A DNA stretch of 64,000 nt from an uncultured Dehalococcoidia bacterium (GCA_964502995.1 CAZCZB010000001.1:45854-109853); one strand, 5' to 3'. Shown: positions 12,325 through 54,192, counted from the first letter of the stretch. Notes: generated by a model from the letters alone, not told the origin. Program-made: numbers and translations.

Positions 12325-13602
12325 CTATTCCAAACCTGGCCTAATCTGCGTTATCTGACCTAATCTCTCGATTGGCGATCCACAGGCAGGCACAGTGTTG
12401 GTTGACGCTTCACCGACCACCGCCGGCGTAGCCGGACTTACACAGTCTCCACGTCCTGACACCGGGAAGCTCGAACCCGGCCATTGTTCCAAATTCAGCG
12501 CGGCGTTCGCGTCACGCTCGACCAGCGCACCACATCCGCCGCAATACCACTGCCGATCAGAGAGCGTCATCTCTGCGTTGTGCCATCCGCAGTGAGCGCA
12601 CAGCCTGGACGAAGGGAACCATCGATCCGCCTTCTCAAAGTGGGCGCCGTACCAGGCGCACTTGTACTCCAGTTTGACCAGGAACCCGGCCATCCCAGCA
12701 TCGGCGATGGCCCGCGCCAGTCGCCGGTTCCGCATCATGCCAGCCACGTTCAGCGTCTCCACCACCACCCGGCCCGCCGACTTGGCTATCGCCGTCGTCG
12801 CCTTGTGGTGGTTGTCATTCCGAACGTTGACTATCCTGGCGTGCAGCCGCCGTCGTTTCGCGTACAGACACTCGCGCCGGTTGGAGCGATTGCTCTTGCC
12901 GTGGACGTTCCGGCTGCGGGCGATGGCTTTGTCAAGCCGGCGCAACTGCTTGAGGCCGCTGGCCAGCGCCTTTGGATTGGCCACCCTGGTACCGTCCGAG
13001 CACTCGGCCATCGTACCAACGCCGACATCGACACCGGTGGTCCGTCCATCCTTGACCGGCGGCGGTTGTTCACCGTCCTCGATGCAGAACGCGGCGAACC
13101 ACGTCCCCGCCGTGCGATTGATCGTTACCTCGCGGATCGAGCCGGGAAAGCGCAGAGCCTCCACCATGTCCACCCGGCCTATCTTCGGGAGGACCACCGC
13201 CTTGCCGTCCACGCGCACGGTGTCGGGACCGTTGTCGGCTCGGAATCCTTGTTCGTGCCGCCGCCGCTTGAAACGCGGGAACCCAACGCGCCGTCCTGGG
13301 CGCTGGCCAGCCTTCACCGCCTTGCGGTACGCCCCCCAACCCGCCGCGGCCTGGCCGAAGTCGATGATGGCGTATTTCGCAGCGTTCTGAGACAGCGGCG
13401 CGGACCATGGGGCGATCATCCCCTTGACCTTGTTCCAACGCGGCCGCAACGTGCGCTCGGACAGCCACTCGCCAACGTCCAGTCCAGCCTTGAACTCGCC
13501 CACCGCCCAGTTGTAGGCGAACCTGGCATAGCCGGCGTGCTGAGCCAGGACGGACTCCTGCTCCCGCGTAGGCTTCAACGCTATCCGGTGTGCTCGCTTC
13601 AT
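12325..13602 (-). CDS. tnpB: TnpB (OrfB) RNA-guided-endonuclease-type transposon protein
   Basis: 425 aa. N-terminal MKRAHRIALKPTREQESVLAQHAGYARFAYNWAV and a C-terminal zinc ribbon CAHCGWHN...WYCGGCGALVERDANAALNL. Confidence 0.9.
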   Translation of the reverse strand: MKRAHRIALKPTREQESVLAQHAGYARFAYNWAVGEFKAGLDVGEWLSERTLRPRWNKVKGMIAPWSAPLSQNAAKYAIIDFGQAAAGWGAYRKAVKAGQRPGRRVGFPRFKRRRHEQGFRADNGPDTVRVDGKAVVLPKIGRVDMVEALRFPGSIREVTINRTAGTWFAAFCIEDGEQPPPVKDGRTTGVDVGVGTMAECSDGTRVANPKALASGLKQLRRLDKAIARSRNVHGKSNRSNRRECLYAKRRRLHARIVNVRNDNHHKATTAIAKSAGRVVVETLNVAGMMRNRRLARAIADAGMAGFLVKLEYKCAWYGAHFEKADRWFPSSRLCAHCGWHNAEMTLSDRQWYCGGCGALVERDANAALNLEQWPGSSFPVSGRGDCVSPATPAVVGEASTNTVPACGSPIERLGQITQIRPGLE

Positions 13603-13605
13603 GGC

Positions 13606-14262
13606 CTATCCGATCAGCGACAGTTGCCGCGCCGTCTCCACCACAGTCTGATCTCCATCGTTGGCCAGCGCGTCCAGCAGTTTCTTGCTCTTGTGGCTGC
13701 GACTGCCGTACAACTTCGCCGAAAACACGGTGATGATCTCCAGCACGTCCTGCGCCAACTCTTCCTCAAAACTCGGCTGCTCGCCTTGATGGATGATGAC
13801 GATCTCGATACCTTGCAGCTCGCACAACGTGAACACCAGTTCAGCGCCGAACCGCAACAGCCGGTCCTTGTGCGTGATTACCAGCCGCTCCGTCCGCCGG
13901 CGCAGGATCAACTCCAGCAACTCCTGGAGTCCTTTCTTGCGGTAGTTCATACCGCTGCCGAGGTCGCGGATCACCTGGGTGCGCCATCCTTTCGTCGCGC
14001 AGTAGGCCTCTAGCGCGGCGTGCTGGCGATCCAGATCCGCCTTCTGGTCCGGGCTGGATACTCGCGAATAGCAAATGGTCAGCGGTTCCGCCGGGTCGCT
14101 CCGGTAGCCGAGCAGGTCCGCGACGGCGTAGTAGCGAGTGCCGCCCTGCGTTTTGCGCGTCGGCATCAATTCGCCGGTGGACTCCCACTTCCGCAACTGT
14201 CCCGGTGTGGTCCCGAGCATTCTCGCCGCTTCGCCTATCTTGACCAGTCTGGCATCGTTCAT
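13606..14262 (-). CDS. tnpA: IS607-type serine recombinase transposase
   Basis: 218 aa. MerR-like HTH (VKIGEAARMLGTTPGQLRKWESTGEL) followed by the resolvase catalytic motif ICYSRVSSPDQKADLDRQ. Confidence 0.9.
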   Translation of the reverse strand: MNDARLVKIGEAARMLGTTPGQLRKWESTGELMPTRKTQGGTRYYAVADLLGYRSDPAEPLTICYSRVSSPDQKADLDRQHAALEAYCATKGWRTQVIRDLGSGMNYRKKGLQELLELILRRRTERLVITHKDRLLRFGAELVFTLCELQGIEIVIIHQGEQPSFEEELAQDVLEIITVFSAKLYGSRSHKSKKLLDALANDGDQTVVETARQLSLIG

Positions 14263-33913: not shown

Positions 33914-35941
33914 TCATTCCGTAGGTTGGGCGTCAGACAGCGTGGCCCGGACGAGCGCGGCCGCCAGATGGACGGGAACCGCGTTGCCGATTTGCTTCGT
34001 GACCTCGCTGATGTTGCCCACGAACTCGTACTGCGACTCCTCGTCGTCAAACCCCATGGCCCGGGCCAGCTCGGCGTTCTCCAGCATCCTGAACCGGATG
34101 TCCAGCAGGTGAGGCTGGCCGTCCACGAAAACGATGCGCCTGGGGTCGATGCCGGCTTCGACGGCCTCGCGGGCGATGTCCTCCGCGATGGTGGGCGTAA
34201 CCAGGTTGCCCGCCCCTCGACTGGTGACTTTGGGCAGCGGGTCGGACACGTCATGCACCCTCGGCTCCTGACCGGAAGCCTCGCCGAAGTTGGGCACGAT
34301 GTAGGACTGCGCCACCGGAACCGTCAGCGTCAAATCTCCCTTGGTGGTCATGGTGGGCAGTGGGCTATCCAGCGGCCGGCTATAGTCGCCGCTGCGTCCC
34401 GTCTGACTGATCCGGGCCACGATGGGTTGCGCCAACCCCAGCCCCGGCGAGGTGGTGATAGAACCCAACGGCTTATCCACCGAGTGGACACGGCGGTCGT
34501 CGCCCTTCTCCCCCTGGCTGCCGTTGCCGTGGGCCAGTTTGATCACGGCGGGGTTGGCCAGCCCATGACGCGCCTTCGTGGTAACCGTGTGCAGGGGATC
34601 GTCGATGCTGGCGGCATCGCTGTTGCCGTAGTATTCGACGATAACCGGACTGACGACGGCGTGTTTACGGCAGCCGGTGATCGCCGACAGCGGGTGAGCC
34701 GTGTCCTGGGCGAAGCTCTGGCCGTAATACTGGATGATGGTCGGGCGTACCAGCGAGATCTTGCCCGCCGTGGCGATGGTAGGGGTCGGCTCCTCGGTCG
34801 ATCTTGGCGCTCCGGCGCTCTGCTGGCCCAGCATGAAGGGCCGCAGGTCCGGCTCGACGAGAATGCTGCCGCCGCCGTGGGCCGTGGTGATACAGGGAAC
34901 CGGCTCATCGACACCCTTGGGGGCATTGTCGGTCCGGTTCGCGTTCAGGAACGGTTCGGCGTCGGTGTTCACCAGGTAGCCGCCGCCCTGGCAGGTGACG
35001 GTTGGGAACGGATCATCGATTGAATGGAAGCGGCCGGTCCCGTTCTCGCCGTGGCGATTCAGGATGAACGCCTGCGCCGGCAGATCGGCGGGATCCGCGC
35101 CGATCTCGTCTTCCAGGTCCAATAGCCGGATGTAGAGCGGGGCCAGCGGACCGCCGAAATGCTGGAGGCCCTTGGCGATGCGCCGGCGCGTCTTGGGGCT
35201 GAGCGGACGCTTCCGGTACTTGGGGTCGTCCAGCAGGGAGCGTCCCAGGTTCTCCCAGTTGATGATCTCCTTGGCCCCGCGCCAGGGTTGCCGCCCCGGG
35301 AACATCCCCGTGTCGCCCCTGGCATGGGACGGCTCGGGCCAAACCGTCGGCCTGCCGTCCTTCCGGGCCAGCAGAAAGAACCGGGTGCGCGTGGTCGCGT
35401 CGCCGTAGTCGGCGGCGTTGAGCATCTTCCACTCGGCGGTGTAGCCCAGGGCGTGGAAGGTCAGGAACCAGGCTTCAAAATGCTTGCCGCGCTGGGACTT
35501 ATCGGGCCGTCCACTTTCGTCGAGAGGCCCCCAATTCACGAACTCCGGCACGTTCTCTATGATGACGCAGCGGACATCGAGCTTGGTGAGCCAATTGTGG
35601 ATCGCCCAGGGGTTCATCCTGCCCTGGTCGTGAATGGGCTTGCCGCCCCGTGCGCGGGAGTAGAACCGGCACTCCGGGCTGGCCATCAGCAGGTCCAGCC
35701 GGCCCCCCGGTACGACGGCCTCGGGATCCACGATGCTGACGTCCTCCACCAGGTGCCTGGCCGTGGGATGGTTGGCCTGGTGTGTGGCGATAGCGGTGTT
35801 CCAGTGGTTGATTGCCACCAGGTCCATGGCGCTGCCGAGGTCCTCTATGGCGTGTTGGGCGCCGGTCGAGGAACCGCCGGCTCCACAGAAGAGGTCGGCG
35901 ACGAGGAACGTACTCTGCAAATCTATGGTGGATGCTTTCAC
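33914..35941 (-). CDS. DNA (cytosine-5) methyltransferase with an expanded, 8-fold repeated target-recognition region
   Basis: GTG start. Motif I DLFCGAGGSS, PC-type motif IV ASPECRFYS, VIIENVPEF, TTRTRFFLLA and motif X GNAVPV. Between VIII and IX there are eight D-x-P-x-x-[TS]-[IV]-T units. Confidence 0.9.
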   Translation of the reverse strand: MKASTIDLQSTFLVADLFCGAGGSSTGAQHAIEDLGSAMDLVAINHWNTAIATHQANHPTARHLVEDVSIVDPEAVVPGGRLDLLMASPECRFYSRARGGKPIHDQGRMNPWAIHNWLTKLDVRCVIIENVPEFVNWGPLDESGRPDKSQRGKHFEAWFLTFHALGYTAEWKMLNAADYGDATTRTRFFLLARKDGRPTVWPEPSHARGDTGMFPGRQPWRGAKEIINWENLGRSLLDDPKYRKRPLSPKTRRRIAKGLQHFGGPLAPLYIRLLDLEDEIGADPADLPAQAFILNRHGENGTGRFHSIDDPFPTVTCQGGGYLVNTDAEPFLNANRTDNAPKGVDEPVPCITTAHGGGSILVEPDLRPFMLGQQSAGAPRSTEEPTPTIATAGKISLVRPTIIQYYGQSFAQDTAHPLSAITGCRKHAVVSPVIVEYYGNSDAASIDDPLHTVTTKARHGLANPAVIKLAHGNGSQGEKGDDRRVHSVDKPLGSITTSPGLGLAQPIVARISQTGRSGDYSRPLDSPLPTMTTKGDLTLTVPVAQSYIVPNFGEASGQEPRVHDVSDPLPKVTSRGAGNLVTPTIAEDIAREAVEAGIDPRRIVFVDGQPHLLDIRFRMLENAELARAMGFDDEESQYEFVGNISEVTKQIGNAVPVHLAAALVRATLSDAQPTE

Positions 35942-38182: not shown

Positions 38183-39739
38183 TCACCTGTCTTCTGTATC
38201 CTCGTAGACCAGCGGCATTGGTAGGTTGGTCGCTTCCAGGTTGCGGCGGGCCAACGCGAGATAATCGGGGTTGAGGTCCAGGCCAACGGAACGCCGGCCC
38301 AGGCGTTGGGCGACGATGCTGGTGGTGCCCCGGCCGACGAAACAGTCCAGGACGGTGGCGGGCACGGTATCGGCGCCGCACTCGCAGGTGGGCCGCCACT
38401 GGTCGGTAGATACCATCGTTGGTTTCCACCCCGTGCTATCGGTTTTCGTTGGGCAATTCCCAGGAACATGGGCGGGCTCACGTTGATTGACGTGTCCGGT
38501 TTTCTCCGCCACGCGGACCCAGGGGTTGCCGCATTGGGCGCAGACGCCGCGCTCGCTGGTGCCGGCCAGGATGCACAGCTCAGGCAGGCGGTCGGGGAAC
38601 GAGGCGTAGTGCGTGTCCTTCCTCCCCTGCGTCGGGATCACCCACCAGTTGCGAAGGTTGGCGCTGCCGATTAGGCCGTTCGACATTGCAGACGTAAAAC
38701 CCTCATTGGCTCTAACCATGCCCGGCTCACCGACTTTGTTTTTCGACGAGGTGTTGGGGTTTTTACCAAATCGTTCTATCGTGCTATTGGCGTACGGCTG
38801 CCGGACAGCCTCAGCGTCATAGAAATAGCGGGCCTGCTTCGTCAGGTGGAACACGTACTCCACCCCCGACGTGGTGCGGTCGTTGACCGACTCCGGCATG
38901 GGGTTGGGCTTGATCCAGTGGTTGGTCTGCCGCGCGATCCAGCCGGGCGTTTCCACCGCGACGCCGTGGCTGCCCAGGCATTCGGGGCAGATAAGCCGGC
39001 CGTCGGGCCAGCGTCCGTATCTGCTCTGATGATGCGTCGCCTCGCACTCGCGGCAGGTGAGCCACGGCTGCTGCAACGCCAGCGCCACGCGGTGGGGCTG
39101 GAACACCAGGTTTTTGGCGGCCAACCCTTCCACCGGCATGTTGCCGCCACCCCAACGTCCGCTGCCCTCTCCGCGCGCAACCCGCTTCCCACGTACCACG
39201 GGGATGTTCAGGGTGCCCCGATTGGTCTTCTGTTTCTCACCGTCCGAGTGCGTCCCGTCCGCGTTCATGCCCTTGCCGCTGCCCGCGTAGGCGTCGCCCA
39301 AGTTGAGCCAGACGCTGCCGTCGTCGCGGAGCACGCGGCGGACCTCGCGCAGCACGGCGACGATGTTGGCCAGCCATTCCTCCAGGGACGGCTCCAGGCC
39401 GATGCCGGCCGATTGCTGGTGGGCACCGCAGTGTCCGCACACTCCGTTGGGCCAGTGTTCGGGAGCATCCCCGCCGTAACTCGCGGTCGTGTCCAGTCGG
39501 TCCGGCCAATCCCGCTGCTGCTGGTGGTCCCGAGCGTGTCGTATGTGGTCGCAGTGCGGGTCCCCGCCTTCCCACGTCGCCAGCCCGTAATCCCTGAGCG
39601 ACCAGTAAGGCGGTGATGTCACAACGCAGTGGACGGACTGGTCTGGGAGCGGGAGGTAGCGGGCATCGCCCTTCCGCAGCTCGACCAGGCCATTGCTCCA
39701 AACCACACTATCCGCTTGGGCTATCGGGTATTCAGGCAT
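38183..39739 (-). CDS. beta-class N4-cytosine/N6-adenine DNA methyltransferase with zinc-ribbon insert
   Basis: Motif IV VVTSPPYW is N-terminal and motif I VLDCFVGRGTTS is C-terminal (beta order). Inserted CRECEA...CPEC. Start placed at ATG 39739. Confidence 0.85.
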   Translation of the reverse strand: MPEYPIAQADSVVWSNGLVELRKGDARYLPLPDQSVHCVVTSPPYWSLRDYGLATWEGGDPHCDHIRHARDHQQQRDWPDRLDTTASYGGDAPEHWPNGVCGHCGAHQQSAGIGLEPSLEEWLANIVAVLREVRRVLRDDGSVWLNLGDAYAGSGKGMNADGTHSDGEKQKTNRGTLNIPVVRGKRVARGEGSGRWGGGNMPVEGLAAKNLVFQPHRVALALQQPWLTCRECEATHHQSRYGRWPDGRLICPECLGSHGVAVETPGWIARQTNHWIKPNPMPESVNDRTTSGVEYVFHLTKQARYFYDAEAVRQPYANSTIERFGKNPNTSSKNKVGEPGMVRANEGFTSAMSNGLIGSANLRNWWVIPTQGRKDTHYASFPDRLPELCILAGTSERGVCAQCGNPWVRVAEKTGHVNQREPAHVPGNCPTKTDSTGWKPTMVSTDQWRPTCECGADTVPATVLDCFVGRGTTSIVAQRLGRRSVGLDLNPDYLALARRNLEATNLPMPLVYEDTEDR

Positions 39740-40130
39740 AACGGTCAATCCATCGCCATTGCCACCAGGCTTCGTTGATGACCAACTCGGCCCAGAGGTC
39801 GTTTTTGTATCCATTCCACATTTGCAAGTCGCGGATCGCGGGGTCGTCGCTGTACTTCGTCAACATCCAATCACGGCCACAAAAGCGGGAGCGTGCGTCC
39901 TCAGCCATTTCCCGATCCAACCGTTGCTGCCAACGGAGAAATCGGGGGCTGGCTTCGTGGCCGGCTATCCAATCGCCCTCGGCGACGGACGCGCCGCACT
40001 TACGGCACCGCCAGCGGGGAGCCGTGCGATACTCGGTCATGTAGCGCTCGCGGTGTCCATTGCCGCACCGCGGTTTGTCAGGCGACGGCGGACCGAGCCA
40101 TGCGGGGCTAACACAGATGGCGGATGTCAT
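39732..40130 (-). CDS. hypothetical protein
   Basis: 132-aa ORF with start/stop overlaps on both sides. Confidence 0.5.
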   Translation of the reverse strand: MTSAICVSPAWLGPPSPDKPRCGNGHRERYMTEYRTAPRWRCRKCGASVAEGDWIAGHEASPRFLRWQQRLDREMAEDARSRFCGRDWMLTKYSDDPAIRDLQMWNGYKNDLWAELVINEAWWQWRWIDRYA

Positions 40131-42170: not shown

Positions 42171-42369
42171 AGCAGTTTGCCCTGCGTGTTGAGTTCACAG
42201 CGGCAGTAGCCCCCGCCATAGCAGAATAGGCAGGTCTGGCATCCAAAGCCTTCCCGTAACACTTGGCGCACAGCCAGCGTCGGACGCGATCTACTCTTGC
42301 AGAGATAATGGCGACGTTGTCGCAGTGGGTGATCCGGTCATAATCGCAATTCACGGGTCTAGGCATCAC
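42151..42369 (-). CDS. small hypothetical protein
   Basis: 72-aa ORF overlapping both neighbours. Confidence 0.4.
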   Translation of the reverse strand: MMPRPVNCDYDRITHCDNVAIISARVDRVRRWLCAKCYGKALDARPAYSAMAGATAAVNSTRRANCYDAHRV

Positions 42370-43078
42370 TAACCTCCATCAGCACAGCCCAGGACACCGG
42401 AAAAGCGCGGGCCATTTCGTCGGCAATCATTTCGGCAACTGAGCGGGTCTCGGGTTGGGCATCAGGCGCCAGCCGTTCACGGCACAGCTTCGCGTAGGCG
42501 AACAGCGAGCCGGTCCACAGCCATGTCGTCAGCGTACACACGGGCAGCACCACGCGGGCTTGCTCCGGAGCGACGCCCATCGTTATCAATTCTCGGTATG
42601 AGGACATCATCTGCGCCACGGCCATTTCCGCGATATAACGGGCGTCCCGTTGCCGAGCGACGGGAAGCCCGCTGACTTGTGGATTGCCGGATTTGCCCGC
42701 CTCTCGCCATTCCTTGGGCAATTCGACCATCGGATCACTGCTGGTGTAGCGCCGGCTGACCTCGTTGCGGGAAACGTCGTTGTCGTCAGCGAAGTCGTCC
42801 ATTTCCACGATGCCAGGCTCATCAGCCCAATACAGCGGGCTAGCTTTCAACCCCACGTGGGAACGGCGAAGCTGCCGCGCCATGTAAAAAGGTATCGTGA
42901 TGCGAAACTGCGCCTGAGGATGGTAAAACGGGCTGTTATGGCCGCTGCGGGCGAGATGGACGATCAGGCGGCTATCCTTGTCGGTAAGCGTATCGCTCTG
43001 GCGGTCGTAAGAGATCCTGGCGGCGTTCACCACCATCAGGTCGTCGCCAAACGTGTCCATTAGTTCAACTTTCGCCAT
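42359..43078 (-). CDS. thyX: ThyX-like (flavin-dependent thymidylate synthase family) protein with atypical signature
   Basis: 239 aa. GHNSPFYHPQAQFRITIP, ...EVSRRYT and EQARVVLPVCTLTTW fit the ThyX fold. The RHR motif reads RRSH and is followed by a ~30-aa insert. Confidence 0.7.
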   Translation of the reverse strand: MAKVELMDTFGDDLMVVNAARISYDRQSDTLTDKDSRLIVHLARSGHNSPFYHPQAQFRITIPFYMARQLRRSHVGLKASPLYWADEPGIVEMDDFADDNDVSRNEVSRRYTSSDPMVELPKEWREAGKSGNPQVSGLPVARQRDARYIAEMAVAQMMSSYRELITMGVAPEQARVVLPVCTLTTWLWTGSLFAYAKLCRERLAPDAQPETRSVAEMIADEMARAFPVSWAVLMEVSDA

Positions 43079-43727: not shown

Positions 43728-45494
43728 TTAGAGCAGTGCCGCGCCGGCGGGTTCCGGCTCGGTTGCTGGATCTTCGGATGTTGCCGGGTTGTTGCCGGGA
43801 ACCGGCATGGTGCAGAGCGAACACAACCCATCCTCATTGACTTGGGTGCTATCCACCTCCTCGCCGCATCCCTCACACTCCACGCGGACCGCCTGCTTGG
43901 GTCCTTCGCTTGCCTCGGCTCCGTCGCTCTTCTGGTCCGGCGCGGCGCTAGGACTGTTGGACGTCTCAGGTTCCTCGACGGCGTTGGTTGCCGTATCCTC
44001 CGCCTGGGCCACGGCCTCACCCTCAGTCGGCGGTTTTTCGGGTTCCGGCTCGACTTCCTTCACCCGAGGGTCGGAGATCAGCAACTTCGGCTTGTCCACG
44101 ACGTAGCCGCCTTCCTCGGCCGCGTCGCTGATCCGGTCCAGCAACCGTACTTTCTGCTCGCCCTCATCGAGGCGGTCGTACACATCGTTCAGCAGAGCGG
44201 TGTAGTCGGCCGCGCTCTCACAGGCGTTGATGCGGTCGCGGAAGGTCGCGCCCTTCTGATCCGGTTCCTGGGGGATTTCCCCCGTCTCGAAGTCTGCGTT
44301 GCCGAAGTCGTCATCCGCCTGGCGCTGTGGTACGCCGGCCTGGGCGCGGCGGAAATTGGCCGCGTTGGAATAGTCGTCATCGTCCGGGAGCGGAACCACG
44401 CCTTCGGGGGCGTACTCGCCGGCGTGGAGCATTTCATCCCTTTCCTCGTCCGGTTCCGGCACCACTCCCTCGCCGAGGGCCCACATGGGCGACTTTGCCG
44501 CTTCCAGGAGGTTATCCAGCTTGCCCTGCATTTTGAGTTTCAGCACGTACACCGTGATTTTCTTGCCGAACGGGGTGACGTCCTTCGGTTCCAGTGCCAA
44601 GGTCAACGGCACACCAGCGAAGTTGCCGAACAGGTTGAGGTAGGCCACGCTGTCGTAGAAGCCGGTGATGCTGTGAAAACTGCCGGTGTCGATTTGCCAG
44701 ACGCCGTAGCCATCCACATCGGGCATCAGGAACTGGAGGTTCATCACCTCGCTGCACGCGCCGCGAGGGTTGCTGTCGCTGTGATAGTCGGGGCACTCGC
44801 GGCCTCGGCAAACCACATTCGGATAGAGCTGGATGCTGCGGTCGTCGCGGTGCGGGAGCGGCCCCCACACTCCGTTGCCCATTCGGTCCACTCGCTCGGG
44901 ATTCATCTTGCGGTTGGCCCGTTCGCCGTCGCCCTTGCACACCCAGTCGCGGGTTTGCTGATAGGCTTTGTACCAGGTGGGCGCGATGACATCGAGATCC
45001 ATCGTGGGCAGGACGATGGTGAGTTCCTTCGGAAACTCGCCGTACACTTCCCTCACCTCCGGCGGGCAAACGAAGTAGTCGGTCTTGGCCGGGTATTCGT
45101 TACCGTTGGAATGCTTCTTCTTAATGCCGAGCCGGATCTTGCCGATGCGGGGCAACATCCTTTGCCGGTCGTGAGTCAGTCCTCTGATGGGCATGATTTT
45201 GATCTCCTCCAAGTAGGGTTCTAGCGTGCGAAACAGTCGGATGTGTTTGCAGTGGGTCAGTTTCGGCTGGCGCCGATATTTGAAGTCAGCACATCCGCAC
45301 CAGTCCAAAGTCGTCTTGTAGTGAAGCAGTCGCTCCAGAGCGTGGACGAGCTGCTCCTTGGTCAGTGCGTCTGACACGGCGGCATGGGCTGCCTCGCTCT
45401 CCTGGATGCCAACCACCGGTTCCGCGACCAGAGCAGGGCACCCAGCATCGTGCTGGCCATCGCCGAAAAGGACGCCGGCGCAGTCGCAGTCCAT
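43728..45494 (-). CDS. SWIM-zinc-finger-containing large protein with acidic C-terminal half
   Basis: Start at ATG 45494. CGCADFKYRRQPKLTHCKH gives CxC...CxH (SWIM). An internal strong RBS (GGAGGAG) precedes ATG 45194 (MPIRGLTHDRQR...). Confidence 0.6.
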   Translation of the reverse strand: MDCDCAGVLFGDGQHDAGCPALVAEPVVGIQESEAAHAAVSDALTKEQLVHALERLLHYKTTLDWCGCADFKYRRQPKLTHCKHIRLFRTLEPYLEEIKIMPIRGLTHDRQRMLPRIGKIRLGIKKKHSNGNEYPAKTDYFVCPPEVREVYGEFPKELTIVLPTMDLDVIAPTWYKAYQQTRDWVCKGDGERANRKMNPERVDRMGNGVWGPLPHRDDRSIQLYPNVVCRGRECPDYHSDSNPRGACSEVMNLQFLMPDVDGYGVWQIDTGSFHSITGFYDSVAYLNLFGNFAGVPLTLALEPKDVTPFGKKITVYVLKLKMQGKLDNLLEAAKSPMWALGEGVVPEPDEERDEMLHAGEYAPEGVVPLPDDDDYSNAANFRRAQAGVPQRQADDDFGNADFETGEIPQEPDQKGATFRDRINACESAADYTALLNDVYDRLDEGEQKVRLLDRISDAAEEGGYVVDKPKLLISDPRVKEVEPEPEKPPTEGEAVAQAEDTATNAVEEPETSNSPSAAPDQKSDGAEASEGPKQAVRVECEGCGEEVDSTQVNEDGLCSLCTMPVPGNNPATSEDPATEPEPAGAALL

Positions 45495-46015
45495 CAGAAC
45501 TCTCCGTGCTCCTGCCCGTCCCAGCCCACATAGATTGGGAACTCCGGCAACTCGACAGGTTCGGGTTCGCGGTGCATCTTCATGCGCCCGAACACATCGC
45601 CCGGATTGCACCGATCGCAGGCGGTGAGCCAATGGACCGCTTCAAAAAGTATCCCGGTGGGCACGCCGCAGAAATCGCAACGCGCCGCATCGATTTGGTG
45701 AATGAACGTATCGGACGGCTCACGCTCTTCCAATTCGCGGCCGTCAAAAAATGGGTTGTACCTACCGTCGCTATACCGCCAATGCCCTGCTTGCCACCAC
45801 GCCTGGTGACTGCGCCGTTCGGGTCGGGGCTGCGACGGGCAGGCGGGGTAGCAGACAAGGCGCCAGTTGTGGCCGATGATGCCGCGGTCCTCGGTTCCCC
45901 ATTTGGAGCGTCCCCCCTTGCCGCAGAGATCGCACAGGGCAGCGTCCCAAAAGAACCGGAATGGTGCCAACGGTGCCAGCTGCCCGAGGTAGTATGACGA
46001 TTCAACGATGTTCAT
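45494..46015 (-). CDS. Cys-rich hypothetical protein with C-terminal ELPEFPIYV..GQEHGEF tail
   Basis: Start at ATG 46015 (RBS GGAGG). The tail is shared with the 19596..20258 product. Confidence 0.55.
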   Translation of the reverse strand: MNIVESSYYLGQLAPLAPFRFFWDAALCDLCGKGGRSKWGTEDRGIIGHNWRLVCYPACPSQPRPERRSHQAWWQAGHWRYSDGRYNPFFDGRELEEREPSDTFIHQIDAARCDFCGVPTGILFEAVHWLTACDRCNPGDVFGRMKMHREPEPVELPEFPIYVGWDGQEHGEF

Positions 46016-47761: not shown

Positions 47762-47983
47762 TCAGTACGTTTTGAAGGGCCCAGTCGCGTTCTCTTCCGC
47801 GGGCGTAGTTTCTTCCAGCCAGGCTTCCAAGGCCCAGGCCGGCACCAGGCGAGAACGCCCAACCTTTTTGCTGGCGATGTCGCCGCGCAGAAGAAGCTCT
47901 CGCATCTTGGTTTCACCCAGGCCCACGGCTTGAGCAGCCTCGGCCACGCTGTAGGCCAGTCGTTTGATTTCGACCTCAGACAT
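47762..47983 (-). CDS. excisionase/AlpA-type HTH protein
   Basis: Start at ATG 47983. LAYSVAEAAQAVGLGETKMRELLLRGDIASKKVGRSRLVPAWALEAWL is the HTH_17 pattern. Confidence 0.6.
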   Translation of the reverse strand: MSEVEIKRLAYSVAEAAQAVGLGETKMRELLLRGDIASKKVGRSRLVPAWALEAWLEETTPAEENATGPFKTY

Positions 47984-48245
47984 AGCGGCCCTCCTCCATG
48001 CAAGCGTTCTGAGCCTCCGCCAGCAGCATGTTGAACCTGGCCCGCTTCCGGGCGATGTCCCGTTCCAACTCCGCGATGCGGTCGGCGCGGTGCTCACCGG
48101 CCGGCCGGCAGCGCAGCACGGTCAGGCTCTCCCGGTCGTAGGCCAGTTCTCCGGCCAACTTCCGCAAGGGACCTTCGTAGCGGCGCCGAGCCGTGGGTTG
48201 GGCCAGACGTTTCTGTTGGCGTTCCGCGATGGCCAGCGTCATCAC
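47976..48245 (-). CDS. hypothetical basic protein
   Basis: 89-aa ORF, second gene of the rightmost minus-strand operon. Confidence 0.5.
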   Translation of the reverse strand: MMTLAIAERQQKRLAQPTARRRYEGPLRKLAGELAYDRESLTVLRCRPAGEHRADRIAELERDIARKRARFNMLLAEAQNACMEEGRYV

Positions 48246-48487
48246 TCCGTCTCCGGCTTTTCTTTCCCTGCCAATACCCGTTGCCGGGCCTCTTCGGCCC
48301 GATCCAACAGGTCCAGGGCTTCATAGACGTCCGGCTCGAACCCTTCGGGCATGGGGCGCCGGCCGTTCAGGATCGCGCTGAGCGCGGTTTCGTGGATTTG
48401 CAGGATATCTGCGAGTTCCCTGGCCCGGTGTCCACGGGAGGCTATCTGGCCCCGGAGCCGGGCTAGTAATGGCGTGACTTCAGGCAT
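48242..48487 (-). CDS. Cro-like HTH regulator
   Basis: 81 aa. ARELADILQIHETALSAILNGRR. Divergent from the cI-like gene across the operator region. Confidence 0.7.
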   Translation of the reverse strand: MPEVTPLLARLRGQIASRGHRARELADILQIHETALSAILNGRRPMPEGFEPDVYEALDLLDRAEEARQRVLAGKEKPETE

Positions 48488-48511
48488 TGCAGTCTCCTCG
48501 TTTTGCTGGTT

Positions 48512-48532
48512 GATACCAGTAATACTGGTATC
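48512..48532. promoter_or_regulatory. operator O1: perfect 10-1-10 palindrome GATACCAGTA-A-TACTGGTATC
   Basis: Read directly from the sequence. Related imperfect sites at 48548-48566 (AAACCAGTATTACTTGTAT) and a half-site GATACAGTA at 48584-48592. Confidence 0.75.
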
Positions 48533-48542
48533 AGATTGGCGA

Positions 48543-48571
48543 ATCCTAAACCAGTATTACTTGTATGTCAA
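48543..48571 (-). promoter_or_regulatory. candidate cro-side promoter TTGACA-N17-TAGGAT with operator O2 in the spacer
   Basis: Minus strand: TACTTGACATACAAGTAATACTGGTTTAGGATTCG. O1 lies just downstream of the -10. Confidence 0.55.
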
Positions 48572-48618
48572 GTATTTTTGTTTGATACAGTAAGGCCACC
48601 GTTGATAGCGGAGGTGTC

Positions 48619-49290
48619 ATGGCGACTACAAATCTTTTAGGCGGTCGGGTGAAGCGAGCACGTGACCGCGCCAACATGACTCAAGCGGAATTGGCCGATT
48701 GCTTGGGCGTGCGACAACAGGCCATATCCAACGTCGAGACCAACCGCAACGAGTTGAAGTGGGAGATGATTGTCGATTTAGCGAAAGCGCTCAACGTCTC
48801 CGTTGACTACCTAGCCTGTCTGACGGACGACCCCATATCCTGCGACGACCGATTTGTCAGGTCTATCGGCTATGAGTTCGTCGAATACGTACCCATCCAA
48901 CGGGATTTGGCAGTGGCCGGCATCAACATGGGGAATCTTGTTGGCCACGAGGTCGGCGGCTTGCCTTTTCGCCGCTTCCGACTGGAACAGCTCGGCATCG
49001 ACCCGACGAATGCGCGTGTGTTTCGGGTCAAGGGCGATTCCATGTGCCCGACATTGACCGACGGCGGCGCAATCCTGGTGGACTACGCCCAAAGCAGGCT
49101 CTACGACGGCGGGATATTCGTTTTTGAGATAGACGACACCCTGATGGTGAAGCGCGCCCGTTACAGCGACCAATGGATGATGGTCAGCGACAATCCGGAC
49201 CCGGCATTTGCGTCGATTCCCTTCACCGAAGAGGCCATTATCTGGGGGCGGGTGGTCTGGACGTCACGGATTTTCTACGGCAGTAAGTAA
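48619..49290 (+). CDS. CI/LexA-like repressor (XRE HTH + S24 peptidase)
   Basis: 223 aa. MTQAELADCLGVRQQAISNVE HTH. VKGDSMCPTL (Ser) and MVKRARY (Lys) form the autocleavage dyad. Confidence 0.9.
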   Translation: MATTNLLGGRVKRARDRANMTQAELADCLGVRQQAISNVETNRNELKWEMIVDLAKALNVSVDYLACLTDDPISCDDRFVRSIGYEFVEYVPIQRDLAVAGINMGNLVGHEVGGLPFRRFRLEQLGIDPTNARVFRVKGDSMCPTLTDGGAILVDYAQSRLYDGGIFVFEIDDTLMVKRARYSDQWMMVSDNPDPAFASIPFTEEAIIWGRVVWTSRIFYGSK

Positions 49291-49442
49291 TAGGGCAGGC
49301 TCGTTCCTTGCACTCTTGGGATGGCCGACGATGTGTCCGATGCTGAGGGGAACGGCCACCCCAGAATACCAAGCCCGCCTGATCAACCTAGAACTGGAGA
49401 AATGACGTTGACGAAACTACCGACGCTCTTCCAAGGAGAACC

Positions 49443-50294
49443 ATGAAACTCACCAAACGAATCGGTATTCTGATAATCGCCGTAGCCGTCATCGCGGCTG
49501 CGATAGTCGGATCGGTCGTTGCCGCCGGCGATGCCCAAAAGTTCACCACCTGGCAGGCCGCATTTGACCACCTGACCGGTCGCGTGGCGGACCTGGAGGC
49601 CAAGCACAGCATCGTCTGCTCCACGCTCGTGGACGAGTACAACGTCGGTCACCGGGCGTCCAGCACCGACACTGAGCAGGAATCGCACGACCTCGGGATC
49701 GGCAAGGTCGAAGATTACCTGGATAAGGCAACCAGCGGGACCCACTACGAAACGAGCTGGACGCGAGCCGGAGCGGAGGCTGAGTACAAACGATGCACTC
49801 CCGTCAGTCAGACCTCCAACACCCCGAAACCAACTTCCACCACGCCGGCGCCGTCATCGACCACGACCTGCACACCGGACGATTACGACCGCCAAGAATG
49901 GGGCGACTACCCGGCCGCCAATGCTGATGCAACGCCCCGGTGGACGTTGCCCGCAGACAATGTAAATTCACCGGGCATCACCCAGGACCACCATGTTGCG
50001 CTGAAGGACGCCCACGTATCCGGCGGATGCGATTGGTCGGAGGCTCGGAAAGATACCTTTTCCGACGACACCGGCAACCTGAACCCGACCACTCGGTCGT
50101 TCAACTCCAGCAAGGGGAATCGCACGCCCGACCAGTTGACGGGTATCGCGCTGCGCATCATTGATACGCCTGTTGAGAAGTGCGCTTATGCCACTCAACA
50201 CGACGCGGTGAAACGCAAGTACGGCCTGACCATGACGGACAGTGAGCAAACGACCGTGACCGCTTGGCTCGCACTCTGTTCGTCCGAGAGGTAG
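49443..50294 (+). CDS. membrane-anchored DUF1524/His-Me-finger nuclease-like protein
   Basis: N-terminal TM GILIIAVAVIAAAIVGSVVAA and a Thr/Pro linker. DYDRQEWGDYP...QDHHVALKDAH...GNLNPTTRSFNSSKGNRTP resembles secreted DUF1524 nucleases. Confidence 0.6.
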   Translation: MKLTKRIGILIIAVAVIAAAIVGSVVAAGDAQKFTTWQAAFDHLTGRVADLEAKHSIVCSTLVDEYNVGHRASSTDTEQESHDLGIGKVEDYLDKATSGTHYETSWTRAGAEAEYKRCTPVSQTSNTPKPTSTTPAPSSTTTCTPDDYDRQEWGDYPAANADATPRWTLPADNVNSPGITQDHHVALKDAHVSGGCDWSEARKDTFSDDTGNLNPTTRSFNSSKGNRTPDQLTGIALRIIDTPVEKCAYATQHDAVKRKYGLTMTDSEQTTVTAWLALCSSER

Positions 50295-50300
50295 TTCAAA

Positions 50301-50753
50301 ATGGCAACGGAGACAAGAAACAGGATCCCTTGGTGGCGCCGTTGGGGGATGATCGTCGTCTGGGGAGTCTTGATCGGTTTGTGCATTGCCGCAATATCTT
50401 GTGGCGACGAAACCGATCAATCCTCAGCCGTTAACACTCAGATTTCCGCTGACCTGAAAGCCATGATCGTAGCGCAGGTCACAGGCTACCCAGAAGCGTT
50501 GGACGCCGCGATCACGCAACAAGACGAGGACATCAGCATTGTCCTTGTGGTCGCAGGCTGGACTTCCGAATCGAAGGCCAGAGAACTAGGCGACAACGCC
50601 GTAAGAATGACCAAAAGCCTCAGCCCAGATTCTTCTCCAGGGGAGTCAATTGGACAGGGAAGGTACAACTACTTGGTCAGCGTATATGACCCAGGTGAGC
50701 GGTTGATTGCTCAGGGCGCTAAAGCCAAGGGCGCCGACCGTATCACGTGGTAA
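50301..50753 (+). CDS. putative lipoprotein or membrane protein
   Basis: 150 aa. WGMIVVWGVLIGLCIAAISCGDE is signal/lipobox-like. Confidence 0.5.
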   Translation: MATETRNRIPWWRRWGMIVVWGVLIGLCIAAISCGDETDQSSAVNTQISADLKAMIVAQVTGYPEALDAAITQQDEDISIVLVVAGWTSESKARELGDNAVRMTKSLSPDSSPGESIGQGRYNYLVSVYDPGERLIAQGAKAKGADRITW

Positions 50754-50792
50754 TCAGCGCAAACCTTTGCGGCGTCATTTCGGAGCCTAATC

Positions 50793-51899
50793 ATGCCACT
50801 TGAAGAAAGCATCCACTCCCTCGCTGCACGACTGCCCGACGTCCTGTCTCTGATAGAAACCGAGGAGGGCACCAAGAACGCCCTGGTGCTCCCCTTCATC
50901 GCGGCGCTGGGCTACAACCCATTCGACCCGAATGAAGTCATACCTGAGTACGTCGCCGACGTGGGGATCCGGCGCGGCGAAAGGGTTGACTTTGCCTTGA
51001 TGCGGGACAGAGAGCCTATCATCCTCTTTGAGTGCAAGGCAGCTAACGTCAACTTGGGCGATAGCCACATATCGCAACTGTTTCGCTACTTCACCACCAC
51101 GCCGGTCCGCATCGGCGTGCTCACCAACGGCGTCGTTTATCGGTTCTTTTCGGACCTGGACAAAGCCAACACCATGGACCAGCAGCCTTTTCTCGAAGTC
51201 AACCTGGCGGAGTTGGACGATGCAACGGTCGCTGTACTGCACCGTTTCGCCAAAGGTTCCTTTGACGCGGAACGGACCATCGAGGCAGCCCTCGATCTGA
51301 AATACACCAACTCAATCCAACAGGTGCTGGCCGAAGAGTTCGCCAACCCGTCCGGCGAGTTGGTCCGAATGATAGCGCGGCGGGTCCATGGCAGCAGCGT
51401 ACCACAGGCAGTAATCAAGAGATTCGAGGCGTTGGTCAAGGACGCATTTGCTCGGTTCATCAACAAAAGAACCGAAGCCCGTCCTCAGTCCGGTCCCGAA
51501 CCGGACGGGTCGGGGACATCCACAGAAGAGGCTATTGCACAACACCGCCCGAACCCGGCGCCCGTGGAGCTTCCCATTGACTTGTTTATGGAACCGGGCG
51601 TCGGTATGTATTCGAGGGCGCGACTGGAGGACGATGGCTTTACCGTTGTCGTGCTTGCCGGGTCAGCGATTTGCGCGCACGAAAGGCGGACAGCTGGACT
51701 CGTCGTTTCCGAACAAAGAAGAGACGCCCTGGAGCGGGCCACATGGGTTGAAGATGGCGAACACTATCAACTGACGCAAGACTACAGATGCACATCGCCT
51801 ACCAACGCGGCCACTTTCGTCTTGGGGTGGCACGCCAATGGTCGTCAATGGTGGACAGATGCAGACGGCAGAAAGCTGGCCCAAATCCTGAACGGCTGA
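50793..51899 (+). CDS. restriction-endonuclease-like (HSDR_N-type PD-(D/E)xK) protein with C-terminal DUF4357-like domain
   Basis: EEGTKNALVLPFIAALGY...VDFALMRDREPIILFECKAANVNL...QLFRYF matches the type I R N-terminal fold. The C-terminal FTVVVLAGS...TSPTNAATFVLGWHANGRQWWTDADGRKL resembles DUF4357. Confidence 0.65.
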   Translation: MPLEESIHSLAARLPDVLSLIETEEGTKNALVLPFIAALGYNPFDPNEVIPEYVADVGIRRGERVDFALMRDREPIILFECKAANVNLGDSHISQLFRYFTTTPVRIGVLTNGVVYRFFSDLDKANTMDQQPFLEVNLAELDDATVAVLHRFAKGSFDAERTIEAALDLKYTNSIQQVLAEEFANPSGELVRMIARRVHGSSVPQAVIKRFEALVKDAFARFINKRTEARPQSGPEPDGSGTSTEEAIAQHRPNPAPVELPIDLFMEPGVGMYSRARLEDDGFTVVVLAGSAICAHERRTAGLVVSEQRRDALERATWVEDGEHYQLTQDYRCTSPTNAATFVLGWHANGRQWWTDADGRKLAQILNG

Positions 51900-51928
51900 G
51901 CCGAGATAGTCCATAACGAACGACCGAT

Positions 51929-52405
51929 TTGACGACAAGGGAGACTACTTTGAAAACTAGGACCACTTTGCTTGCCGCCTTTGCGGTGGTCGTCGCCATC
52001 GTTGGGGCGTGGTTCTCTGCCGGCGCGAGCGTCTCCGCGCACCAGCCTGACGTTTATCAGATTGATCAGAGCAATGCACCTGATCCCCCCTGCACCTTCT
52101 ACCACGACGATGCCTGTGAAATCGCCGCTACCCCAGGAAGTTTGACTATCTCTGAGTCGAACTGGGCCGGGCAATCCCATGGACTCGATACCCAACTCAG
52201 CGCCGCGCAAGCGCACTTTCAGAACCTTACCGGCTTCGCCGAACTAAAGGGGCAGGTGAACGACCACATCGTGCCAAGCGTCACCCGCTTACTTGTCGCA
52301 AGCGGCGGGACCGATACTTCGAGCGGAGATGTGAGCTACGCCATAACCTCAGACATCACCGGCCTGCCGTGGATCGCGGAGGCGGAGTACCAGGTACTGC
52401 CTTAG
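51929..52405 (+). CDS. secreted hypothetical protein
   Basis: 158 aa. Signal-like TLLAAFAVVVAIVGAWFSAGASVSA. Confidence 0.5.
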   Translation: MTTRETTLKTRTTLLAAFAVVVAIVGAWFSAGASVSAHQPDVYQIDQSNAPDPPCTFYHDDACEIAATPGSLTISESNWAGQSHGLDTQLSAAQAHFQNLTGFAELKGQVNDHIVPSVTRLLVASGGTDTSSGDVSYAITSDITGLPWIAEAEYQVLP

Positions 52406-52425
52406 GTCAGACCGACATCAACCCC

Positions 52426-53553
52426 ATGGCCGGCCAGATAACACAACGCAAGCCCGGCGTCTGGAAGCTCGTCGTCAACCTCGGCCGCGATACCCAGGGC
52501 ATCCGCCGGCGCCGCGCCTTCACCGTTCACGGCACCCGCCGCGACGCCGAGCGACGCCTGCGTGAAATCCTGACCGACCTTGACCGCGGCGTCGCTCCGC
52601 CGGAACACATCACCTTGGCCGAGTGGCTCGACCGTTGGATGCGGGAGGTCATCGTCCCTCAGCGGAGTGTGGCCACCGCCGAGCGGTACGAGGGCATCAT
52701 CCGCAAGTACATTGGCCCAGCCCTCGGCCATCACGAATTGGCCCGACTATCGCCCCTGCGGATCAAGCGGTTCCAGGACGAGATGCTCGATGACGGCCTG
52801 TCGCCCTCGTCAGTGGGCCTGATGCACATCATCATTTCGGGGGCCTACCGCTACGCCATGATGCTGGAGGTAGTCCAGCGCAACCCCGCGTCGGCGGTGC
52901 CGGGCCCACCCCGCGTTCGGGGCGCAATCGACGTACCCGAGGTCGAATACGTTCAGGCGATGCTGGACCTGGCCGAACGCGAAAAGCACCTGTTGTTCCC
53001 CATGATCCACGCCATCGCCTACACCGGAATGCGCCGGGGCGAGGCCATCGCGCTGACGTGGGACGACGTCGACCTGGACAACGGCTATTTGGAGATAACC
53101 CGTTCGGCGGGCTGGCGACGGGCCGGGCTGGTCATCTCGTCGCCCAAGACTGCCGCCGGCGCCCGCATGGTGGACCTGGACCCGAGGACGATTGAGGTGC
53201 TGCTGGACCACCGGAAGTGGCAGGCCGCTTACATCGCGGACCATGCCGGCTACTACGACAACCGGGGCATATTGTTCGCTGACGAAAAAGGCGGCTATAT
53301 CAAGCCCAACCGGGTGTCGCGGACTATTGGGGACCTTGGTCGGAAGGTCGGCCACCCCCGAATGACGACCCACTCCCTGCGCCACTTCCACGTGACGATG
53401 CTGTTGCAATCGGGGTTCCACGAGGCCATCGTCGCCCAGCGCGCCGGCCACGCCAATTCCTCAATCACCCGGACGGTGTACGCCCACGCACTGCCCGGCT
53501 GGCAACGCGAAGCGGCGGAAGCCTTCGGTAAGGCTATGGAGCGTGGAGCGTGA
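52426..53553 (+). CDS. int: tyrosine integrase
   Basis: Start at ATG 52426 (MAGQITQRKPGVWKLVVNLG). AYTGMRRGEAIALTWDDVD (Arg I), HSLRHFHVT (H-x-x-R) and RTVYAH (Tyr). Confidence 0.9.
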   Translation: MAGQITQRKPGVWKLVVNLGRDTQGIRRRRAFTVHGTRRDAERRLREILTDLDRGVAPPEHITLAEWLDRWMREVIVPQRSVATAERYEGIIRKYIGPALGHHELARLSPLRIKRFQDEMLDDGLSPSSVGLMHIIISGAYRYAMMLEVVQRNPASAVPGPPRVRGAIDVPEVEYVQAMLDLAEREKHLLFPMIHAIAYTGMRRGEAIALTWDDVDLDNGYLEITRSAGWRRAGLVISSPKTAAGARMVDLDPRTIEVLLDHRKWQAAYIADHAGYYDNRGILFADEKGGYIKPNRVSRTIGDLGRKVGHPRMTTHSLRHFHVTMLLQSGFHEAIVAQRAGHANSSITRTVYAHALPGWQREAAEAFGKAMERGA

Positions 53554-53693
53554 CTGTGAGATTGGTGCCTCTCTCCGAAAATGGTGCCCTAATGGTGCCC
53601 TGCTCGCCAACGTCCCATGATGGACGGTGGCGCCAAACCCCTGATTTCCCGCACGGATGCGATGCCAACGATGCTTTGCGATGCTGATATGCG

Positions 53694-53713
53694 GAGTCCC
53701 TCCCTCGGCACCA
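53694..53713 (+). other. tRNA 3'-end-like fragment; candidate att core / right prophage boundary
   Basis: GAGTCCCTC-CCTCGGC-A-CCA reads as T-loop end + T-stem + acceptor strand + discriminator + CCA. The 5' two-thirds of a tRNA are absent upstream. 140 nt after the int stop. Confidence 0.3.
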
Positions 53714-54192
53714 GATTTCTTCCAAATGAGTATAAAAAGCCCCATCGGCGTTGCTGTGTATGACATCCTGCTTCTTTGGGTTGCCTGCTGCCAAGGCGCG
53801 ACGTCAGCCGTCAGCAAAGCGGAGCGCCACTCGTTCTATTGGCGCGGCTGCGGAACCGAAAAACCGTACGAGCCGAAAATCTGCGAACGGCATGGTTCCC
53901 GGGTCATGTGAGCGGGTACCGGGTAACAGGTGAAACCGGTGGCCCATGCCATAGCCGGTTCCTTGCCCGTCAAGAGTAAAGTCCCCACACGTGGATCAAC
54001 TGAAATCGGGTGGCAGGAAGATGGCCACCGCGTCATCCTGATCGGAATTACCAAAGCCCGATGAGGGAGGGCCGCGATGGCCAAGCACAGCGTGGCGAAC
54101 GCAGTCCGGACCGGCTCACCCACTGCGATGTGGTGGGCACGTTTGGGGATAAACTCCCAAAACCCCATTCCAAACGAGGTTGCCCATTGCCG

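Follow-up and report, generated by a model that had tools for sequence, protein, structure and literature searches.

Does a block of four genes lying between the repressor and the integrase of a putative prophage of an uncultured Dehalococcoidia bacterium form one system, or does it hold unrelated cargo? The block occupies positions 49443-52405 of a 64,000-nucleotide stretch of DNA (GCA_964502995.1 CAZCZB010000001.1:45854-109853), referred to below as the window. An earlier note on this DNA read the four genes as a single two-layer exclusion system of the lysogen, which would combine an outward-facing nuclease with an intracellular restriction-like one. Results of our analysis favour a different explanation, to which we assign a probability of about 0.6, namely that the genes, designated here O1 to O4, are separately acquired mosaic ("moron") cargo and act independently, O3 in restriction-like defence and O1 as a surface DNase. 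The element that carries them is best explained as a temperate phage or a phage-like integrative element of a Chloroflexota bacterium, with relatives from sponge metagenomes.

Organization of the four-gene block

The block is real: a scan for open reading frames (ORFs) found four of them on the plus strand, with limits exactly as first described, and Pfam matches identify the flanking genes as those of a repressor and an integrase. The six genes are as follows (aa, amino acids).

48619-49290, plus strand: CI/LexA-type repressor, first gene of the plus-strand array of the lysogeny side (HTH_3, 1.4e-12; Peptidase_S24, 5.1e-13; Phage_CI_repr, 5.7e-6)
49443-50294, plus strand: O1, 283 aa (ORF scan)
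50301-50753, plus strand: O2, 150 aa (ORF scan)
50793-51899, plus strand: O3, 368 aa (ORF scan)
51929-52405, plus strand: O4, 158 aa, or 151 aa from 51950 (ORF scan)
52426-53553, plus strand: tyrosine integrase, ORF open from 52369 (Phage_integrase, 1.9e-19; Phage_int_SAM_3, 3.4e-9)

The likelier start of O4 is the TTG at 51950, which follows a GGGAGA ribosome-binding site and agrees with public gene calls (151 aa). Shine-Dalgarno-like sites precede O1, O3, and O4, that of O1 being strong. The genes are separated by 6 nt (O1-O2), 39 nt (O2-O3), and 29-50 nt (O3-O4), and a pattern scan of the plus strand detected no terminator-like site within the block. In all four genes the GC content at third codon positions exceeds that at second positions; their overall GC content is 0.55-0.61, as compared to 0.66 in the integrase gene. 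O1, O2, and O3 have many homologues and are therefore more than chance ORFs; O4 matches itself alone. A single N-terminal hydrophobic segment is present in each of O1, O2, and O4, and none in O3, so that three of the four products are predicted from sequence to be extracytoplasmic. The slot, on the strand of the repressor and integrase genes, is a cargo position of the lysogeny module, as had been recognized before, and in a lysogen the four genes are likely to be co-transcribed with the repressor and integrase side.

Occurrence of the four genes in other genomes

The earlier note had named co-occurrence of the genes across genomes as a check on its proposal. We performed it with tblastn and profile/hidden Markov model scans of 182 loci (1.5 Mb), including 78 viral and 80 metagenomic loci of the O3 family. 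Beyond identical copies of the element, no two of the four families occurred together at any of the 182 loci. The nine genomic O1 loci, among which the nearest full-length relative (P0122) is 69% identical to O1, contained neither an O2, O3, or O4 relative within 6 kb on either side nor a conserved neighbour of any other kind. Similarly, no relative of O1, O2, or O4 was found at about 165 loci with O3 relatives. The whole block was encountered elsewhere solely as 100%-identical copies on short contigs of three sequencing runs (SRR8304785, SRR8304786, and SRR22586457), which represent the same element.

The nearest relative of O3 (P0002, 50% identical) is encoded on three sponge-metagenome contigs (L002-L004), with a helix-turn-helix (HTH) repressor gene upstream. 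It lies directly upstream of the gene of an integrase that is 52% identical to that of the window, with nothing between them. The slot of this related prophage (L002 6914-7972) contains genes of a 125-aa lipoprotein-like protein, a 69-aa TM2-domain membrane protein, and a PaREP1-like protein; O1, O2, and O4 are absent from the slot in the related sponge prophages. The gene content of the slot thus changes, whereas O3 and the integrase are retained as a pair.

Conserved co-occurrence and order across diverged genomes, by which a four-gene defence unit would be recognized, were not seen in the sampled loci. Location in the lysogeny module, variability between related phages, and independent distribution of the genes, which characterize moron cargo, were all observed, and the GC content of the cargo genes, lower than that of the integrase gene, agrees with separate acquisition. 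The O1 and O2 families were not detected in IMG/VR viral contigs, and these two genes therefore look like captured host genes. O4, being without homologues, cannot be a conserved component of a system. The proposal of one two-layer system, for which the earlier note had named the lack of co-occurrence outside this locus as a refutation, is thus not supported: O1, O3, and O4 were not found together at the sampled loci, and the related prophage retains the O3-integrase pair alone.

O3, a predicted restriction-like nuclease

The product of O3 comprises two parts:

50793-51497, plus strand: O3 residues 1-235, HSDR_N-type core with a helical extension (Pfam, AlphaFold2)
51576-51887, plus strand: O3 residues ~262-365, DUF4357-containing C-terminal domain (Pfam)

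Sequence and structural model alike predict O3 to be a cytoplasmic, stand-alone PD-(D/E)xK nuclease, and here the first reading of the gene as an HSDR_N-like protein fused to DUF4357 is borne out. Three Pfam matches exceed their cut-offs: HSDR_N (1.2e-13; 51.8 bits, cut-off 25.1) and HSDR_N_2 (9.8e-9; 35.7 bits, cut-off 25), families PF04313/PF13588, and DUF4357 (1.5e-13). Residues 3-242 match phrog_4225, "endonuclease", at 3e-83. An alignment of 31 O3 homologues shows no substitution of D66, E80, or K82 (GERVDFAL...ILFECK). Residues 1-235 were modelled by AlphaFold2 with a predicted local distance difference test (pLDDT) score above 90, and Foldseek matched this model to the nuclease domains of DrdV (type IIL), HsdR fragments, Cas4, and BpuSI with probabilities of up to 1.00. 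Hence, the catalytic D...(D/E)-x-K motif and the restriction-endonuclease-like fold are both present. The model of the C-terminal domain is poor (pLDDT below 50 at residues 238-349), and its fold is not classifiable; a DUF4357 profile found no solved relative in the PDB, and PDB sequence searches with O3 and O4 returned nothing informative.

Among the candidates scored, 519 proteins of about 360 aa matched the O3 family. Source names describe them as "type I restriction endonuclease" or "predicted type IV restriction endonuclease", and the label COG2810 also comes from such names. O3 resembles the stand-alone HSDR_N/HSDR_N_2 proteins (COG2810-type; phrog_4225) in its size of about 360 aa, its solitary occurrence, and the invariant D...E-x-K. 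However, most of these proteins have another C-terminal domain, and DUF4357 is confined to a small clade that includes O3 and its sponge-prophage homologues. COG2810 has been grouped with HSDR_N (PMC3424549) and reported as enriched in sponge symbionts (PMC5649159).

Genes of the O3 family are present in 19 GenBank phages. In Streptococcus pneumoniae phage IPP25 the order is repressor, hypothetical gene, O3-like gene, and integrase, and in a Clostridium phage the O3-type gene adjoins HTH regulators. In Porphyromonas phages it adjoins HicAB and is located mid-genome rather than next to an integrase. A tyrosine integrase gene lies within 6 kb on either side in 20 of the 78 IMG/VR loci, and within 1.5 kb in 13 of them, mostly downstream and on the same strand. 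The immediate neighbours of O3-type genes (n = 95) include HTH_3 (13/95), Peptidase_S24 (6/95), and integrase (3/95) genes. Cellular contigs carry the gene singly, without a consistent partner, and no consistent methylase neighbour was found across the loci of O3 homologues.

Some cellular copies occupy variable regions. The syntenic chromosomal loci L179 and L180, which carry the O3-type genes of P0008 and P0010, diverge just downstream of the gene, and P0043 sits among transposases and HicB. Genes of an N6_N4 methylase and a methylase-HNH protein follow downstream in only one of L179 and L180, a difference that suggests a variable hotspot.

Several known systems share parts with O3. The nuclease domain of HsdR and of type IIG/IIL enzymes (DrdV, MmeI, BpuSI) is of the same fold and family. 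Unlike these enzymes, O3 has no superfamily 2 motor, methyltransferase, or target-recognition domain, and no HsdM or HsdS neighbours. Its assignment as a type I HsdR was rejected, as it lacks a helicase domain and the block contains neither HsdM nor HsdS. DUF4357 is known from fusions with GmrSD type IV enzymes, GIY-YIG/T5orf172 proteins, and McrB-like proteins (PMC4619093, PMC5714182, PMC11090510). By analogy, O3 may be compared with type IV restriction enzymes, since it is solitary, has no adjacent methylase, and shares DUF4357 with GmrSD and McrB-like proteins (PMC4619093, PMC11090510); the same company suggests that DUF4357 is an accessory recognition module of restriction-type enzymes.

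PADLOC models match O3 only in its C-terminal, DUF4357-containing region of about 95 aa (O3 residues ~257-365). They are PDC-S14 (E = 7.6e-19, profile positions 200-294 of 301), PDC-S57 (E = 1.5e-7, positions 146-223 of 229), and the DUF3780 model; the PDC-S14 and PDC-S57 alignments fall on O3 residues 269-365. Membership of O3 in PDC-S14 or PDC-S57 was rejected, since the match is to the tail and the N-terminal effector part is unmatched. With its PADLOC matches so confined, O3 belongs to no catalogued system, and the view that the block corresponds to no described system stands. The related view that no methylase partner is nearby holds within the block; the element does encode methyltransferases at 33914-35941 and 38183-39814, and a fused gene lies at 5012-7666 of the window (see below).

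The fold, the intact triad, the position of the gene, the absence of a partner methylase, and the kinds of protein in which DUF4357 otherwise occurs all argue for a restriction-like role of O3. In a lysogen O3 probably cuts incoming foreign DNA, as a single-gene, type-IV-like defence against superinfection, in which DUF4357 would be the target-recognition or sensor module. That O3 alone has a defence role is plausible, as judged from its sequence.

O1, a predicted outward-facing nuclease

49866-50294, plus strand: O1 residues ~142-283, predicted extracytoplasmic His-Me-finger nuclease module, DUF1524/GmrSD_C-like

O1 is a predicted type II membrane-anchored protein. Its positively charged N-terminus is followed by a transmembrane (TM) segment (residues ~7-28), a helical stalk (~30-118), a Pro/Thr-rich linker (~120-140), and the nuclease module. 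The AlphaFold2 model has pLDDT values of about 90 or above over most of the module and low confidence in the linker. The module (about 140 aa) is 60-73% identical across some 80 proteins that differ in their N-termini, where fn3-like, leucine-rich repeat (LRR), DUF4352, trypsin, cyclophilin, He_PIG, and Excalibur domains occur (P0123-P0198). Such tight conservation despite domain shuffling may have arisen by recent transfer within the community, or else the module may be under strong functional constraint. The proteins P0190 and P0191, located in mobile or variable regions, have the TM-stalk half of O1 without the nuclease, so that O1 itself is modular.

Residues D182, H183, H184, N212, N221, and K224, as well as four cysteines (143, 196, 247, and 279), are conserved in at least 90% of the O1 family. 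The Pfam family GmrSD_C/DUF1524 (PF07510) matches O1 at 15.4 bits, below its cut-off of 23 (E = 0.017). It is matched (E <= 0.1) by 10 of 63 family members, at best with 7e-4, and it is the sole nuclease family that recurs across the O1 family; an Excalibur calcium-binding domain is present in 3 of the 63. The top Foldseek matches in the PDB were Vvn and Vibrio cholerae Endonuclease I, His-Me nucleases of the periplasm or the extracellular space (probability 0.94-0.98, E of about 0.1). In the BFVD the best match was a phage GmrSD_C protein (E = 1.3e-3; root-mean-square deviation 1.9 Å over 100 columns, 25% identity). PDB sequence searches with O1 and with the profile of its family gave nothing informative. 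The alignment, the model, and the Foldseek matches agree on a D-H...N...N motif in a beta-beta-alpha-metal fold. Thus, of the earlier description of O1, the membrane anchor and the outward-facing DUF1524-like nuclease fold are upheld by fold and motifs, and the Pfam assignment stays below threshold.

The motif and fold are shared with GmrSD/DUF1524 proteins, although O1 falls below the Pfam cut-off of the GmrSD_C family and has no relative in the PDB at the sequence level. Its assignment as a GmrSD restriction enzyme was rejected: such an enzyme is cytoplasmic and has an N-terminal DUF262 domain (GmrS, a ParB-like NTPase), whereas O1 faces outward and has at its N-terminus a TM segment, a helical stalk, and a linker, with no DUF262 match. 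Closer to O1 are the extracellular subgroup of DUF1524 proteins and Vvn/Endonuclease I, with which it shares conserved cysteines, a membrane anchor, and a predicted location outside the cell; three of its relatives contain Excalibur. Group 3 of DUF1524 proteins has been described as including putative nucleases of extracellular location that carry TM helices and Excalibur domains (PMC5714182).

The conserved cysteines suggest that folding and activation of O1, like those of Vvn, take place only after export from the cell. In that case O1 would need no immunity partner; a candidate immunity protein was sought and rejected, as O1 loci have no conserved neighbour. O1 is most likely a surface-displayed, probably disulfide-stabilised, non-specific His-Me-finger DNase that would degrade extracellular DNA, a trait of lysogenic conversion.

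The closest functional analogy to O1 is provided by the Streptococcus pyogenes prophage DNases (Spd1, Spd3, Sdn, and Sda1), extracellular nucleases that are carried as lysogenic-conversion cargo and belong to the His-Me-finger enzymes. O1 has no match to an Endonuclease_NS-type Pfam family and is thus of another nuclease family. It is also membrane-anchored, whereas the S. pyogenes DNases are released, and its host is a sponge-associated Chloroflexota bacterium and not a pathogen. The S. pyogenes DNase genes are kept even in degraded prophages (PMC8115907).

In species-representative genomes we found nine loci with the O1 module, all of them in metagenome-assembled genomes (MAGs), eight of Dehalococcoidia/Chloroflexota and one of Gemmatimonadetes. 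The element probably acquired O1 from its hosts, in whose MAGs (Dehalococcoidia/Chloroflexota) this gene family is typically found. At one locus of a Dehalococcoidia MAG (OZ220699.1), a 457-aa protein (P0127; L010 5044-6417) terminates in an O1-type nuclease module, and about 1.6 kb downstream lies an integrase gene (7973-8932) whose product is 40% identical to the integrase of the window. This locus may represent a second association of the O1 module with a mobile element.

O2 and O4

O2 residues ~45-150, plus strand: predicted extracytoplasmic C-terminal domain of about 100 aa (profile family)

The O2 domain was found in 360 representative clusters at E <= 1e-3, nearly always at the C-terminus, with R102, G120, Y124, G139, K141, and W150 invariant. 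Searches of Pfam, PHROG, NCBIfam, PADLOC, and the PDB assigned it to no family. In its relatives it is joined to cytoplasmic Zn-ribbons, fn3, or SH3 domains, and in one (P0288) to a staphylococcal nuclease (SNase) domain. The latter fusion is a second, weak link of the O2 domain to secreted nucleases. O2 had been described as lipoprotein-like, but its sequence AISC is not a canonical lipobox; the N-terminal hydrophobic segment is predicted to be an anchor or, possibly, a lipoprotein signal.

O4 had been called a secreted protein, and its single hydrophobic segment and signal-peptide-like N-terminus (predicted signal peptide ending in ...AGASVSA, followed by HQ) are consistent with this prediction. 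No homologue besides itself was detected in 5.8 billion proteins, and searches of Pfam, PHROG, PADLOC, and the PDB gave no family or structural match. Variable membrane or secreted proteins encoded in such a slot are typical of cargo for superinfection exclusion or surface modification.

The element and its flanks

Left of the repressor gene, the lysogeny switch is followed on the minus strand by replication genes, with a ParB-like gene among the genes of this strand. The following features were assigned:

48571-48543, minus strand: sigma-70-like promoter reading into the Cro-like gene at 48242-48487
48242-48487, minus strand: Cro-like HTH gene of the lytic side, divergent from the repressor gene (HTH_31, E = 1.8e-5, just under the curated cut-off)
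47762-48097, minus strand: HTH_17 gene, divergent, part of the lysogeny switch
43728-45632, minus strand: 634-aa protein with a Gp3-like, "recombination directionality factor-like" domain, early region
42359-43078, minus strand: ThyX-type thymidylate synthase, early region (Pfam Thy1, 2.3e-34)
38183-39814, minus strand: large DNA methyltransferase (phrog_116 or phrog_67, the matches of this gene and the next)
33914-35941, minus strand: large DNA methyltransferase (phrog_116 or phrog_67)
12325-14262, minus strand: IS607-like pair inserted among minus-strand genes
13606-14262, minus strand: serine-recombinase-type transposase of this pair
12325-13602, minus strand: large transposase-family protein of this pair (phrog_506)
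5012-7666, minus strand: type IIG/IIL-like fused restriction-modification enzyme, 884 aa (HSDR_N_2, N6_Mtase, and Eco57I/MmeI-type methylase)

Both large methyltransferase genes fall in the early/replication region, away from O3. The DNA encoding the fused enzyme is low in GC (0.52-0.54) and adjoins a DDE transposase gene (7687-9174, minus strand); the nuclease domain of the enzyme is of the same family as that of O3, about 44 kb apart.

The right flank from 54193 onwards is host DNA. When clustered at 90% identity, the CoA-transferase encoded there groups with proteins that, where named, come from Chloroflexota MAGs; this cluster and the MAGs of the O1-family loci are the grounds for placing the host in the Chloroflexota. 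The region of about 640 bp between the integrase stop codon and the first host gene (53554-54192) contained no tRNA, tmRNA, or Rfam family. The search for an attachment site revealed no direct repeat of at least 15 nt between the integrase-distal flank and positions 1-48000, which leaves the left end of the element undefined; the element may extend past the left edge of the window. Comparison of positions 48000-54000 with 50,697 GenBank phages gave no similarity match at the DNA level.

Alternative explanations

Of the ways in which the four genes might act together, the most integrated is the two-layer system of the earlier note, with O1 working at the envelope, helped by O2 and O4, and O3 inside the cell. 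The common strand, the tight spacing without an internal terminator-like site, the support for nuclease folds in both O1 and O3, the three products predicted to be extracytoplasmic, and the lack of any matching known system agree with it. We nevertheless regard it as very improbable, since no two of the four families are found together outside the identical copies, the related prophage retains only O3, the O1 and O2 families are missing from viral contigs, and O4 has no homologues. It is also improbable, if somewhat less so, that the lysogen has two independent and complementary nuclease barriers, O3 as a phylum-spanning single-gene defence that reads foreign (e.g., modified) DNA and O1 in exclusion at the surface. 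Destruction of DNA by O1 at the surface of the host, Chloroflexota cells being monoderm, would be an exclusion mode undescribed for prophages, and the exclusion of incoming DNA by O1 appears less likely than the turnover of extracellular DNA. A more limited partnership would unite O1 and O2, possibly with O4, as an envelope pair independent of O3, a surface DNase or exclusion module in which O2 could be a partner, an anchor, or an inhibitor of the nuclease. Both proteins are predicted to face outward, their genes are nearly contiguous, and P0288 fuses the O2 domain to SNase. This pairing seems to us rather unlikely: an O2 relative or a conserved neighbour was found at 0 of the 9 other O1-module loci, the O2 domain is, with its 360 clusters, far more widespread than the O1 module with its approximately 80 proteins, and it is mostly fused to unrelated domains (Zn-ribbons, fn3).

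A different objection concerns O3 alone, whose function could lie outside defence, in repair or recombination, in the processing of DNA during excision or replication, or in breaking down host DNA once the prophage is induced; the gene would then adjoin that of the integrase through linkage and not for expression in the lysogen. The strong conservation of its N-terminal domain across phyla, its solitary occurrence in cellular contigs, where housekeeping genes surround it and defence islands are hardly in evidence, and its mid-genome location in Porphyromonas phages would fit such a function. We consider it unlikely, because phage copies of the gene preferentially lie on the lysogeny strand in the company of repressor and integrase genes and not in replication or recombination modules, because DUF4357 otherwise occurs on type IV restriction enzymes and on PADLOC defence candidates, and because some cellular copies (P0008, P0010, and P0043) lie in variable or mobile regions.

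Several observations weigh against our preferred explanation of independent, separately acquired cargo. The six genes from the repressor to the integrase share one strand, are spaced by 6-153 nt, and are not interrupted by any terminator-like site, so co-expression, and hence cooperation, is possible; the stop codon of O1 and the start codon of O2 are just 6 nt apart. The co-occurrence sample covered the neighbourhoods of the other families and not those of the O2 family, and it included only nine genomic O1 loci. With regard to O3, defence is plausible from sequence but predicted, not experimental, for every member of the family. Of the 113 neighbours of its cellular homologues, most have housekeeping functions and only a few belong to toxin-antitoxin or restriction systems, and a defence-island signal was looked for around these homologues with little or no result. 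For a restriction nuclease, O3 shows uncommonly strong conservation in the N-terminal domain (~40-60% identity with diverse homologues), which could point to a conserved cellular substrate and not to an arms race. Finally, no capsid, portal, terminase, or tail family was matched among the approximately 20 largest ORFs screened at positions 1-48000. With no structural gene recognised, it is solely by its lysogeny and replication modules that the element is identified as a prophage; its structural genes may be located to the left of the window, or else it is something other than a complete phage.

Significance of the O3 and O1 families

The arrangement of the four genes is that of an ordinary mosaic cargo slot, in which two candidates, O1 and O3, merit testing. 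Both are only modestly novel: O3 adds a member to a nuclease family that is known but uncharacterised, and O1 represents a divergent extracellular subfamily of the DUF1524 type. If proteins of the O3 family do restrict incoming DNA, they would constitute a compact, single-gene defence located beside the integrases of very different temperate phages, the hosts of which include Chloroflexota, pneumococci, enterococci, and clostridia, and this would be the first function for DUF4357. Since pneumococcal phage IPP25 has a homologue, this role could be examined in an organism amenable to experiment. Proteins with the O1 module form a tightly conserved family of predicted surface or secreted nucleases, encoded, among the genomes searched, in MAGs of Chloroflexota/Dehalococcoidia and in one Gemmatimonadetes MAG. 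In symbionts, fn3 and LRR domains count as "eukaryote-like", and their presence in the O1 family may bear on the handling of extracellular DNA by such bacteria.

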